Shown here one piece after another: positions 6,324 through 9,275 of a stretch of 28,775 nucleotides of DNA. The DNA is from a virus (taxonomy: Duplodnaviria > Heunggongvirae > Uroviricota > Caudoviricetes), in the IMG/VR virus record IMGVR_UViG_2778261515_000018, positions 1 to 28,775 of that record; one strand, given 5' to 3'. The position numbers were made by a program, and so were the translations under genes. The first letter of the stretch is position 1; every line of letters begins with the position of its first letter. The notes under the pieces were generated by a model. The model saw only the letters and a program-made list of their open reading frames with translations. It was not told the origin of the DNA and made no database searches.

Positions 6324-6632
6324 TTACCTCGCTGTAATTAGTTTTTGCCTTCTGTAACCAGCAGCATACAGTGCAACTTCAGGCAAACAAACGCTTCCGC
6401 TATTCGCATCTGTATTTGATTTGCTAATGATGCCGAGTGATATTGCTTTTTCAGAAATGCTTAAACGCTTTCTCGGGGCTTCCTGAACAGGTTCCTCACT
6501 GTCTGTGCCGAAGATCGAATCGATGATGTTGCATATAGCATCACGCTCGATAGCCAGCTTTCTGCGCCGCTCATGACGGCGAGTTTTGGCATTTCCTGCA
6601 AATGTTGATTTTCCGTACACGATTACCGTCAT
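6324..6632 (-). CDS. N: Antitermination protein N, P22 gp24-type
   Basis: Internal ATG of track ORF with GAGGAA RBS; N-terminal arginine-rich motif GNAKTRRHERRRKLAIERD matches the P22 N peptide; cognate P22-type boxB lies upstream. Confidence 0.85.
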   Translation of the reverse strand: MTVIVYGKSTFAGNAKTRRHERRRKLAIERDAICNIIDSIFGTDSEEPVQEAPRKRLSISEKAISLGIISKSNTDANSGSVCLPEVALYAAGYRRQKLITAR

Positions 6633-6751
6633 GATATTTTCCTCATGTGAAATGGCTTTGGTGGTAATGCGCCAGATGCTGATCTTCTGGTTGCTGTCGT
6701 TGCTGCTGCAATTCACATCACCGCCAAACCCATCTCGTTTGGTATCTGTTT

Positions 6752-6786
6752 GCGCTTTGTCAGCGCCCCATCGAAGTTAAAGAGCC
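6752..6786 (-). promoter_or_regulatory. nutL: nutL: boxB (6752..6766) and boxA (6776..6786)
   Basis: Minus-strand reading GGCTCTTTAAC (boxA-like), 9-nt spacer, GCGCTGACAAAGCGC (P22-type boxB hairpin), between pL and N. Confidence 0.8.
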
Positions 6787-6831
6787 TGCCAATCTGTTCC
6801 GTTTGGCTTCCAGCTTCCTGCTGATGTGTTT

Positions 6832-6894
6832 AGTATCACCGCTAGTGGTATTTGTGTCAACACCGCCAGAGATAATTTATCACCGCAGATGGTT
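6832..6894 (-). promoter_or_regulatory. pL promoter with OL1/OL2/OL3 operators (lambda-type)
   Basis: Minus strand: -35 TTGACA (6855..6860), 17-bp spacer, -10 GATACT (6832..6837). 17-bp operators OL1 6834..6850, OL2 6858..6874, OL3 6878..6894, near-identical to lambda as recalled. Confidence 0.85.
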
Positions 6895-7043
6895 ATCTGT
6901 ATGTTTTTTATATGGATTTATTTTTTGCAGGGGTGAATTGTTAGGTAGGTGAGGGATCAGAATTGCACTGTTTAGCAAGTTGTATCTATTAGTTTTCCAA
7001 TAAATACAAATGGTTATGTGTTGTTGGGAAAGGGGAGCGAGAG

Positions 7044-7071
7044 GCAAAGAAAACCCGGCGCTGAGGCCGGG
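7044..7071 (-). terminator. t_imm-like intrinsic terminator ending the cI operon
   Basis: Minus-strand RNA CCCGGC CUCAGC GCCGGG followed by UUUUCUUUG; matches the lambda t_imm sequence as recalled. Confidence 0.75.
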
Positions 7072-7085
7072 TTGTGAGGAATTAA

Positions 7086-7271
7086 TTACAGAGCAAAGAG
7101 ATCATGCATTAGGTTGCTGTTCATCTGGTGGTTGAATTGATACGGCTCCAATTCCTTCTTGATCTCGTTCAGGTGTTGTTCCGCTTTTTTTGCCAGATCG
7201 TGACCTTCTTGGATCTGGCTTTCCAACATCTTGTTGAGAATTTCCATCTCCGGTTGCAGATTCTTCGGCAT
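7086..7271 (-). CDS. Possible small overlapping ORF (61 aa) at the 3' end of the peptidase gene
   Basis: Alternative frame MPKNLQPEMEILNKMLESQIQEGHDLAKKAEQHLNEIKKELEPYQFNHQMNSNLMHDLFAL with GAGG about 9 nt upstream of ATG; could be a separate gene, a frameshift product or chance. Confidence 0.25.
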   Translation of the reverse strand: MPKNLQPEMEILNKMLESQIQEGHDLAKKAEQHLNEIKKELEPYQFNHQMNSNLMHDLFAL

Positions 7272-8103
7272 TAGCTTTTTCCTCTTTTTGTAGATACGTT
7301 GTACAATCAATAACCCTCGGCTTTCCAAATGTTGGAATGTCACCATTATGAATTTTGTCACAGAAAAGATTATAGAGTATTTCTGTTATACCTTTAGGAT
7401 GCTCAACACACTTGAAAAGTTCCTTGGCTTCTTTTCTGTCTATAACAAATCCATGTGAAGGATATGAGGCTATTAGTTTGCCTAACGCCCCTTCTTTTAG
7501 GCTGCTTGGTTTGTCTGCTAATCGTTGGCCATAAGTGATAGCTATACTCATTGCGCGCTGATGTTCACCAAGCTTTATTGGATCTATCTGTGCGGCCATA
7601 GGTGCTATCAACGCTTCTGTAAGTCTGGTCGCGATATCAGCAGACATTTTAGTACTTATCTGATTTTCGTATCTTATCTTAACAAGGTGTGAGTTAAACG
7701 CTGAAATAGAGCGTTCCTTTAGAGCATCAAGAGCTGTCATGATAGCTAAACCAGAACTCATCTCACCTATTTCATCGTTTTTTTTCAGTTGGATATCTAA
7801 TGGCCCAAGCTCCCCCATGTCACCAATAACAAGTTTATTGGCTGCTATAGCTATTAGTGTACCAGCACTTTTGCATGGTCCAACAACTAAAAGTGTTACC
7901 GTTTCATAATGGTGTTGTAGAGCTCTACCTATACGATAACCTGCATTTGGATCACCGCCATAAGTAGCAACACAGAAGATAACATTCTCTTTTAATCCAT
8001 GTTGTGACTTACGTTTCTTGATTTCATTGGTGAGATCAAGATAACCATCACGATGAATATCGCCTGTATACACATAAACATCATGATTTTCAATAGAATT
8101 CAT
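7102..8103 (-). CDS. Clp/SppA-fold (S14/S49-like) serine peptidase-like protein (333 aa) in the position of lambda rexAB
   Basis: Track ORF; AGGGAG RBS 8 nt upstream of ATG. Motifs ATYGGDPNAGYRIGRAL and LVVGPCKSAGTLIAIAANK align by eye with the ClpP oxyanion and catalytic-Ser regions; no obvious ClpP His motif, so a Ser/Lys dyad is possible. C-terminal ~70 residues low complexity. Same strand as cI, 115 bp downstream. Confidence 0.65.
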   Translation of the reverse strand: MNSIENHDVYVYTGDIHRDGYLDLTNEIKKRKSQHGLKENVIFCVATYGGDPNAGYRIGRALQHHYETVTLLVVGPCKSAGTLIAIAANKLVIGDMGELGPLDIQLKKNDEIGEMSSGLAIMTALDALKERSISAFNSHLVKIRYENQISTKMSADIATRLTEALIAPMAAQIDPIKLGEHQRAMSIAITYGQRLADKPSSLKEGALGKLIASYPSHGFVIDRKEAKELFKCVEHPKGITEILYNLFCDKIHNGDIPTFGKPRVIDCTTYLQKEEKANAEESATGDGNSQQDVGKPDPRRSRSGKKSGTTPERDQEGIGAVSIQPPDEQQPNA

Positions 8104-8218
8104 TCGTTAAACTCCCTGCTGTGGTTACGATGAATGTATTCATGTTGAAGCTAAGCTATAGCGGCTTGTCATCATCACCAATCTGGCGGAATTGACTGCT
8201 CATAAATCACAATTGGAA

Positions 8219-8932
8219 TTACCCAAACGTCTCTTCAGGCCATTGACTGGCGATAACCTTGCCTACAATGTTGCAGTTCTCATTGCATGGGATGATTGGA
8301 AACTGCGGGTTAAGTGGTTGCAAAAACACTTGCCCACTATCTTTGATCAGTTTTTTGAATGTGAATTCATCACCACCAAGTCTAGCGATACAGAAATCAC
8401 CAGGATCAACAGGTTGTTCAGGGTCAACCAAGATTAACATTCCATCAGGAAAGCTTGGTTTCGATCCTGCCGGAGCTGTCATTGAGTTGCCTTCAACCTC
8501 AAGCCAGAATGCAGAATCACTGGCTTTTTTGGTTGTGCTTACCCATCTCTCCGCATCACCTTTGGTAAAGGTTCTAAGCTCAGGCGAGAACATCCCGGCC
8601 TGAACATGAGAAAAAACAGGGTACTCATACTCACTTCTGAGTGATGGCTGCATACTAACCGCTTCATACATCTCGTAGATTTCTCTGGCGATTGAAGGGC
8701 TAAATTCTTCAACGCTAACGTTGAGAATTTTTGCAAGCAATGCAGCGTTATAAGCATTTAATGCATTGACGCCATTAAATAAAGCTCCAACACCTGACTG
8801 CCCCATCCCCATCTTGTCTGCGACAGATTCCTGAGATAAGCCAAGTTCATTTTTCTTTTTTTCATAAATAGCTTTAAGGCGACGTGCGTCCTCAAGCTGC
8901 TCTTGTGTTAATGGTTTCTTTTTTGCGCTCAT
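8219..8932 (-). CDS. cI: CI repressor, lambda-type (237 aa)
   Basis: Near-identical to lambda CI as recalled ([54 protein letters not shown]...), LexA-like C-terminal domain; leaderless start abutting OR3/pRM. Confidence 0.95.
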
Positions 8933-8942
8933 ACGTTAAATC

Positions 8943-9008
8943 TATCACCGCAAGGGATAAATATCTAACACCGTGCGTGTTGACTATTTTACCTCTAGCG
9001 GTGATAAT
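8943..9008. promoter_or_regulatory. OR3-OR2-OR1 operators with divergent pRM (leftward) and pR (rightward)
   Basis: OR3 TATCACCGCAAGGGATA 8943..8959; OR2 TAACACCGTGCGTGTTG 8966..8982; OR1 TACCTCTAGCGGTGATA 8990..9006; pR -35 TTGACT 8980..8985 and -10 GATAAT 9003..9008 with 17-bp spacer. Confidence 0.9.
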
Positions 9009-9032
9009 GATTGCATGTACTAAGGAGGTTGT

Positions 9033-9233
9033 ATGGAACAACGCATAACCCTGAAAGATTATGCAATGCGCTTTGGTCAAACCAAGACGGCTAAAGATCT
9101 CGGCGTATATCAAAGCGCGATCAACAAGGCCATTCATGCAGGCCGAAAGATTTTTTTAACTATAAACGCTGATGGAAGCGTTTATGCGGAAGAAATAAAG
9201 CCCTTCCCAAGCAACAAAAAAACAACTGCATAA
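9033..9233 (+). CDS. cro: Cro repressor, lambda-type (66 aa)
   Basis: [54 protein letters not shown](I)[11 protein letters not shown]; AAGGAGG RBS. Confidence 0.95.
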
Positions 9234-9240
9234 GTAACAC

Positions 9241-9275
9241 CGCTCTTTATCAATCTGCACCGCCGACAACGCGGT
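9241..9275 (+). promoter_or_regulatory. nutR: nutR: boxA (9241..9249) and P22-type boxB (9259..9275)
   Basis: CGCTCTTTA followed by hairpin ACCGC-CGACAAC-GCGGT just downstream of cro; matches P22 nutR boxB as recalled. Confidence 0.75.

Follow-up and report, generated by a model that had tools for sequence, protein, structure and literature searches.

A lambda-specificity immunity cassette within a P22-type N and nut frame: a probable natural mosaic in a P22-like prophage of Escherichia coli

When the repressor, Cro, and operators of a prophage resemble those of lambda while its N protein and nut sites resemble those of P22, are its regulatory parts at odds with one another? This question is raised by the 28,775-nucleotide stretch analyzed here (IMG/VR virus record IMGVR_UViG_2778261515_000018, positions 1 to 28,775; hereafter the window), in which an immunity cassette of the first kind lies between N and nut sites of the second, an arrangement that the original prediction called a module mismatch. 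We conclude that the mosaic is real but ordinary, i.e., a lambdoid swap of whole working modules at short common sequences. As judged from sequence, the region is very probably a natural modular mosaic in a P22-like (Lederbergvirus, CUS-3-like) prophage, in which a lambda-specificity immunity cassette sits within a P22-type nutL/N and nutR frame. The features that bear on this reading are the following:

6022 to 6040, minus strand: tL1-like intrinsic terminator, AACCCGTCCAAGACGGGTT and then a T run, from a terminator scan; it ends the promoter-proximal pL unit.
6324 to 6632, minus strand: N antiterminator, P22 type, 102 amino acids (aa), with its ATG at 6632.
6752 to 6766, minus strand: nutL boxB GCGCTGACAAAGCGC (GCGCUGACAAAGCGC), identical to the annotated P22 nutL boxB.
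6778 to 6786, minus strand: nutL boxA GGCTCTTTA, one change from CGCTCTTTA.
6813 to 6828, no strand: left joint, around the pL transcript start, with CATCAGCAGGA at 6816 to 6826.
6832 to 6894, minus strand: pL (-35 TTGACA, -10 GATACT) with OL1 (6834 to 6850), OL2 (6858 to 6874), and OL3 (6878 to 6894), lambda type.
7052 to 7073, minus strand: Timm-like intrinsic terminator, -14.6 kcal/mol, at the end of the lambda-like left arm.
8219 to 8932, minus strand: cI repressor gene, lambda type, 225 of 237 residues identical to lambda CI.
8943 to 9008, plus strand: OR3 (8943 to 8959), OR2 (8966 to 8982), and OR1 (8990 to 9006), with pR (8980 to 9008) and pRM, lambda type.
9033 to 9233, plus strand: cro, lambda type, 65 of 66 residues identical to lambda Cro.
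9241 to 9249, plus strand: nutR boxA CGCTCTTTA, the right recombination joint.
9259 to 9275, plus strand: nutR boxB ACCGCCGACAACGCGGT (ACCGCCGACAACGCGGU), identical to the annotated P22 nutR boxB.

Alignment of the window against the complete lambda and P22 genomes by local blastn mapped the breakpoints and showed that N and the nut sites are not of lambda type. Lambda-like DNA blocks were found at 6813 to 7073 (90% identity) and 8223 to 9247 (93%), and the only P22-like blocks in the flagged region were at 6507 to 6826 (73%) and 9228 to 9277 (88%). The description of cI, cro, and the operators as near-identical to lambda is thus fair for the two proteins and for the operators, although at the DNA level the identity is only 90% and 93%. 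OR2, OR3, OL2, and OL3 are exactly those of lambda, and OR1 and OL1 each match at 16 of 17 positions, with the same G-to-A change in each. CI and Cro are orthologous to those of the imm-lambda group, the three OL and three OR sites have lambda spacing, and the promoter hexamers are in place; a lysogen would be expected to carry lambda immunity. The lambda label holds for cI, Cro, and the operators but not for the immunity region as a whole, as an unrelated 333-aa open reading frame (ORF) occupies the place of rexA and rexB and cII is of HK022/HK97 type. On the left arm, the lambda match stops at 7073, the rexB stop codon, with the lambda-like Timm terminator retained. As a separate observation, the change shared by the promoter-proximal operators OL1 and OR1 falls at position 8 relative to lambda (TACCNCTAGCGGTGATA); it is present only in OR1 in mEp234, and in OL1 it was found in all loci read that have a P22-type or S51-class N leader.

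The assignment of N and of both boxB hairpins to the P22 type was borne out. The true start of N is the ATG at 6632 and not an upstream GTG, and the protein is identical to P22 gp24 at 68 of 102 residues (40 of the first 42), with an identical arginine-rich RNA-binding motif, GNAKTRRHERRRKLAIER. It scores 131.5 bits against Pfam N_peptide (cut-off, 27.9), and no meaningful similarity to lambda N was found. The nutL boxB folds into a 5-bp stem with a pentaloop (-8.5 kcal/mol), and the nutR boxB also folds as a short hairpin; each of the two sequences occurs once in the window, where 0.09 (nutL) and 0.00 (nutR) occurrences are expected by chance. The window therefore has, by sequence, the gp24 arginine-rich motif together with a P22 boxB at both nut sites, each after a boxA. 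Past the nutR boxB lies a further hairpin at 9286 to 9303 (ACTCATC-GAAA-GATGAGT), at the equivalent position of which P22 and S51 have hairpins of other sequence (GCGCAT...ATGCGC); it looks like an element conserved in form and not in sequence, possibly part of tR1. A search of Rfam families over 5500 to 10500 returned none at E values up to 1.

The two recombination joints had been predicted to lie between pL and nutL and between cro and nutR, and both were located there. In three- and four-way alignments of the left side, the window follows lambda through OL3, OL2, OL1, and pL and is P22-like directly after CATCAGCAGGA; the lambda match begins at 6813, the P22 match runs no further than 6826, and CATCAGCAGGA is common to lambda, P22, HK97, mEp234, and all panel phages. 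On the right side, the resemblance to lambda continues as far as the end of cro, and the change to P22-like sequence falls inside boxA, which lies between the cro stop codon and the nutR boxB; the lambda match ends at 9247 and the P22 match starts at 9228. The crossovers are thereby pinned to a 16-bp interval around the 11-bp motif at the pL start and to a 9-bp shared sequence. A third joint lies between the nutR boxB and cII, from 9278 to about 9335.

The pL side of the region carries, in order, pL, nutL, N, a Nun-like ORF, and the terminator at 6022 to 6040, and the pR side carries pR, cro, nutR, the hairpin, and cII; the pRM unit consists of cI, the 333-aa cargo ORF, and Timm. In the mechanism that we propose, the immunity cassette runs from pL/OL through the cargo gene, cI, and OR to cro and would have been exchanged via homologous recombination at two short lambdoid-wide sequences, the pL transcript start and the nutR boxA. 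With crossovers at these two shared sequences, every set of mutually recognizing parts would have stayed together. From the known workings of the family, lambda-type CI in a lysogen would shut pL and pR, conferring immunity to lambda-immunity phages, and would also drive the cargo gene from pRM as far as the Timm-like terminator. Upon induction, the pL and pR transcripts would bear P22-type boxB hairpins, to which the P22-type N, translated from the pL transcript, is predicted to bind through its arginine-rich motif; together with host Nus factors on boxA, N would allow RNA polymerase to read through the terminators at 6022 to 6040 and past nutR. With immunity specificity being that of lambda and antitermination specificity that of P22, the two should not conflict. 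The word mismatch is accordingly the part of the original prediction that we do not retain: CI and Cro match the operators, N matches both nut sites, and since each interacting set is internally matched, the phage should work normally.

Concordance between N and its nut sites was assessed in 15 loci beside lambda-type cassettes, namely, lambda, CL707, HK244, HK544, mEp332, WWCOL-236, HK97, mEp234, the window, UMNK88, ETEC1749, A10, UMNF18, S51, and WS4437A-1. Four N classes were found in this setting, and at every intact locus the N class agrees with boxB at both nutL and nutR. Lambda N is accompanied by GCCCTGAAGAAGGGC at nutL and GCCCTGAAAAAGGGC at nutR, P22-type N by GCGCTGACAAAGCGC and CCGCCGACAACGCGG, and HK97-type N by GCGCTGACAAAGCGC and TCGCTGACAAAGCGA, while the fourth class, seen in S51 and WS4437A-1, has the motif NARNRRRARRQAQRE (MTVVITYLADDNARNRRRARRQAQRE) and a boxB, CCCGCCGAAATGCGGG (TCCCGCCGAAATGCGGGA), of one and the same sequence at both nut sites. 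In seven IMG/VR contigs, an N block identical to that of the window is joined to three different immunity cassettes (one of lambda type, one with a cI 66% identical to that of lambda, and one unrelated); the P22-type nutR is present across all of them, and identity to the window sets in precisely at CATCAGCAGGA and at boxA. Among intact prophages, no recombinants were seen in which N is parted from its nut sites; presumably, these are not viable.

Among 5,426 complete E. coli genomes, a probe for the left joint was intact in 22, in 17 of which the match includes boxB, and a probe for the right joint was intact in 16, making the pairing rare (about 0.3 to 0.4%); the left-joint probe had no match in 50,697 phage records. 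The full left joint was accompanied by the full right joint in 16 of the 17 genomes, with UMNF18 as the exception. We considered UMNF18 as a true N/nutR mismatch and rejected it, as its prophage has been deleted, with cro truncated and fused to a late gene. The other five genomes, in which the match to the left probe sets in only just after boxB and the leader is P22-like only up to the nutL boxA, were likewise considered as mismatches and rejected: two of the five were read, and both have an N of the fourth class, accompanied at nutL and nutR by the boxB of that class. These two loci indicate that boxA serves as a joint on the left too. The fourth-class N lies at 3066 to 3371 of locus L030 (E. 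coli S51) and at 2815 to 3120 of L031 (WS4437A-1), where the pL leader resembles that of P22 as far as boxA and differs beyond it. Separately, yet another N class (MTRRT..GRRRERRA) with a GNRA-tetraloop boxB (GGCU-GAAA-AGCC), at 3610 to 3993 of L040 and 3667 to 3996 of L043 and their upstream leaders, accompanies divergent Nun-like genes and immunity cassettes of yet other kinds, with CATCAGCAGGA once more as the joint.

The window belongs to a P22-like prophage of E. coli, whose top phage records are CUS-3 (59% coverage) and Kapi1 (49%), both at about 96% identity; no record covering 80% of the query was found among the phage records searched. Terminase, portal, scaffold, coat, gp4, gp10, and needle genes are present in P22 order, as in the Lederbergvirus virion. 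The late region had been described as similarly mixed, lambda-type in lysis and P22-type in terminase, portal, coat, and needle, which is correct in part. S and R are 99% lambda-like, and terL (92%), gp10 (93%), orf80 (99%), and the needle (62%) resemble their P22 counterparts, but portal, scaffold, and coat are of CUS-3 type, with portal and coat only 35% and 29% identical to P22 versus 99% and 94% to CUS-3, such that the P22 label holds for these two at the family level only. Q, roi, and rus are CUS-3-like. Beyond the third joint lies the following gene:

9340 to 9639, plus strand: cII, HK022/HK97 type with a lambda-like C-terminal end, Pfam Phage_CII.

This cII is itself a mosaic, in that its first approximately three quarters are of HK022/HK97 type and its last 20 codons (TNKKRP...TERSDQIQMEF) are lambda-like; an oop-like terminator on the minus strand (9585 to 9615) overlaps the end of cII and is also lambda-like, with 87% DNA identity to lambda 38591 to 38649.

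Positions 6000 to 9700 of the window are 100% identical to the prophage in porcine E. coli UMNK88 and rl0044, and rl0044 matches 94% of the first 25 kb at 99.7%. A single genome that matches the whole window thus exists only in a trivial sense: rl0044 and UMNK88 carry the same mosaic prophage, and the mosaic reading is therefore not undone. In place of the roi, hkbD, rus, and CUS-3-like Q of the window, the UMNK88 prophage (28000 to 30077 and 35694 to 39212 of locus L011) carries NinG, NinH, a phosphatase, and another Q, and an IS3 element interrupts its portal gene; further module swaps thus already distinguish closely related prophages. Found in wild E. coli from pigs, humans, and birds, the arrangement is that of a circulating lineage present in at least 16 complete E. 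coli genomes.

Directly behind N lies a gene that is the lead most worth following:

6043 to 6321, minus strand: Nun-like ORF, 92 aa, starting 3 nucleotides past the N stop codon, with an arginine-rich N-terminus and a C-terminal VVNHAHQRNPKKKW arrest module.

This ORF matches PHROG 5632, "Nun-like transcription termination factor," with an E value of 1.5e-29. At its C-terminus, DAMFKVVNHAHQRNPKKKW, 8 of the 10 residues through which HK022 Nun contacts RNA polymerase in the elongation complex (PMC5386594) are identical (N97, H98, H100, Q101, R102, K106, K107, and W108), and the two that differ are R94, replaced by K, and H93, replaced by F. Within the arginine-rich motif, RDNSRNRRR is invariant across seven homologs. 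An exhaustive profile search returned 23 cluster representatives of the family among 1.84 billion. A tblastn search of 50,697 phage records with the protein gave no match, in which the low-complexity filter may hide weak relatives, close ones being absent; PADLOC had no match for the Nun-like ORF, the cargo ORF, or orf156. The gene lies behind pL, and a promoter scan gave no convincing separate promoter for it.

Other explanations of the locus must be weighed against a natural modular mosaic. That it is a recent direct recombinant, or a laboratory-type hybrid, of lambda itself and P22 itself is suggested by the lambda and P22 types of its proteins, operators, and boxB hairpins, but we find this exceedingly unlikely: the DNA is only 90 to 93% identical to lambda and 73 to 88% to P22, rexAB is lacking, neither phage is the source of cII, Q, roi, rus, portal, or coat, and numerous wild E. 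coli isolates of pig, human, and bird origin have the same arrangement. As these DNA identities are too low, lambda and P22 are to be regarded as type phages and not as parents. Nor is it at all credible that an assembly chimera or sequencing artifact joined reads of two prophages; although both joints fall in short sequences shared among phages, where misassembly could happen, the left joint is intact in 22 and the right in 16 complete genomes from different laboratories and hosts, and seven IMG/VR contigs have the same N block. A true functional mismatch, i.e., a defective prophage whose N is unable to use one of its nut sites, would have a precedent of sorts in the visibly defective relative UMNF18 with its truncated cro. 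We judge it very improbable for the window, where N shares its class with both boxB hairpins, the early and late ORFs are all intact, and promoters, operators, and terminators are in place. Several points do weigh against the modular mosaic as we present it. The central third of N has diverged from P22 gp24; the panel loci are not all independent lineages, many being 96 to 100% identical; only two of the five genomes with a partial left joint were read; and immunity and antitermination are both deduced from sequence. In addition, OR1 and OL1 are each one base off lambda and the nutL boxA begins with G instead of C, changes by which fine-tuning could differ from that of both lambda and P22.

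The remaining alternative accepts the mosaic but holds that the pairing was selected and not neutral, in that the Nun-like factor would attack the nut RNA of rivals and could be carried only beside an N/nut class that it ignores. We regard this as a possibility, and a doubtful one. It accords with the conserved arrest module, with the position of the Nun-like gene directly after N in every context read, and with the makeup of the family, in which a common arrest tail is joined to differing arginine-rich N-termini, that of P0141 resembling P22 N and that of P0145 resembling HK97 N. The motif of the window's ORF is most similar to that of S51-class N (10 of 16 positions) and unlike that of its own N, and a lambda-type boxB was found in no Nun-like locus. 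On the other hand, similarity between motifs predicts poorly: in the positive control, this measure does not pair HK022 Nun with lambda N, its known target. Prediction of a target from such similarity was rejected as unreliable, and because the control failed, we draw no conclusion on the target. Moreover, independent lineages are few, the gene sits behind a repressed pL, and the argument is built entirely from comparing sequences. Divergent homologs travel with the GNRA-type boxB, and the simple notion that Nun-like genes avoid any lambda-shaped boxB is unsupported. We tentatively suggest, at no greater strength, that nutL, N, the Nun-like ORF, and the terminator might form a portable unit that antiterminates its own transcripts and arrests those of others. 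If so, each Nun-like protein would target the boxB class of rivals and be carriable only with an N/nut set of another class, and the N/nut class seen here would be a selected choice, not a neutral accident of mosaicism.

The modular mosaic also extends to the segment between cI and Timm, where a 1.15-kb segment (7074 to 8222; GC content, 0.40), reaching from the stop codon of cI to that of rexB, stands in for rexA and rexB and contains the cargo gene:

7102 to 8103, minus strand: cargo ORF, 333 aa, at the rexA/rexB position; putative SppA-like serine protease with a predicted ClpP/crotonase fold and a disordered tail.

The protein belongs to a large family of approximately 330-aa proteins (1574 matches) that databases name "SDH family Clp fold serine proteinase" or "SppA," and our literature search found no papers naming "SDH family Clp fold" proteins. 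It falls below the cut-offs of Pfam PF01972 (29.6 versus 31.3 bits, over residues ~40 to 110 only) and of NCBIfam Clp_like_SDH (36.7 versus 250), and a sequence search of the PDB with the family profile gave no match. An AlphaFold model (predicted local distance difference test score, 78.7) has a ClpP/crotonase-fold body, a helical extension, and a disordered tail; its best Foldseek matches, SppA, the NfeD 1510-N protease, and ClpP, are weak (E about 1e-4; template modeling scores, 0.38 to 0.53). Within the family, conservation is at least 90% at S79 and complete at K108; the candidate lysine lies in a low-confidence loop of the model. The identical protein (WP_001084325.1) is found in backbones with lambda N and lambda cII, and the same N/cI backbone is found with other cargo, P63C or ParA. 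In Bartonella (helix-turn-helix [HTH] plus S24 type) and Klebsiella (Rac type), homologs immediately follow a prophage repressor gene in the same orientation, and one in Malonomonas is within a prophage; those of Neisseria and Mannheimia are not phage linked. From its position, it is a reasonable guess that the cargo ORF has a lysogen-expressed exclusion or defense role, and a predicted ClpP-fold protein that recurs just downstream of unrelated prophage repressors occupies the position of the known exclusion genes rexAB and bstA.

Altogether, the results make the region a good illustration of how lambdoid phages exchange whole interacting units, as N stays matched to both nut sites with the immunity cassette lying in between. 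In annotation, the type of immunity and that of antitermination must be assigned independently; "P22-like" or "lambda-like" labels for whole prophages mislead. The original prediction did not mention the replacement of rexAB, the cII of a third type, or the Nun-like gene beside N. The mosaic itself changes little; the Nun-like gene and the predicted ClpP-fold cargo may matter more. The position of the former just behind N hints that transcription-level exclusion proteins, of which only that of HK022 has been studied to date, form a broader family with exchanged motifs.

Several known systems resemble parts of this arrangement. CUS-3 and Kapi1 (CP000711 and MT813197) share with the window the replication genes, nin region, lysis genes, portal, scaffold, and coat, whereas CUS-3 has another immunity region (cI 47% identical), another N, and another terminase. 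The Nun-like ORF shares the C-terminal arrest module of HK022 Nun but differs in its arginine-rich motif, the aromatic residue that stacks on boxB (Y39 of Nun, W18 of lambda N) being a lysine; moreover, HK022 has Nun and no N, while the window has both in tandem. That the immunity cassette of one phage functions in the regulatory frame of another is known from the laboratory hybrids lambda imm434 and lambda immP22 of classical genetics (Kaiser and Jacob; Botstein and Herskowitz). The imm434 substitution has its boundaries where the joints of the window lie, the left one between nutL and pL and the right one close to where cro ends. Such hybrids are laboratory products, constructed or selected with lambda as the backbone, whereas the window is from a natural prophage of the reverse polarity, with a lambda cassette in a P22-like genome.

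A close likeness is to the wild lambda-immunity phages HK97, mEp234, and HK106 (AF069529, EF120460, and EF120461), in which a lambda-type cI, cro, and operators are flanked by a non-lambda N with matching nut sites, with variable cargo in the rex position, an HK97-type cII, and a left joint at the same pL-start sequence; the GenBank records of HK97 and mEp234 already annotate lambda-type operators beside a non-lambda N and nut sites. According to a passage of PMC8585504, citing Degnan et al. 2007, the interval between cI and N is a hotspot of mosaic diversity. The three phages differ from the window in their N motif (MTRRTQFKGNSRSRRRERL) and nutR boxB (TCGCTGACAAAGCGA), the motif and both boxB hairpins of the window being exactly those of P22, and in having HK97-like siphovirus virions as opposed to a P22-like podovirus. 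Lambda immunity beside a non-lambda N was thus already known, and on these sequence comparisons only its pairing with the exact P22-type motif and boxB hairpins appears to be new.

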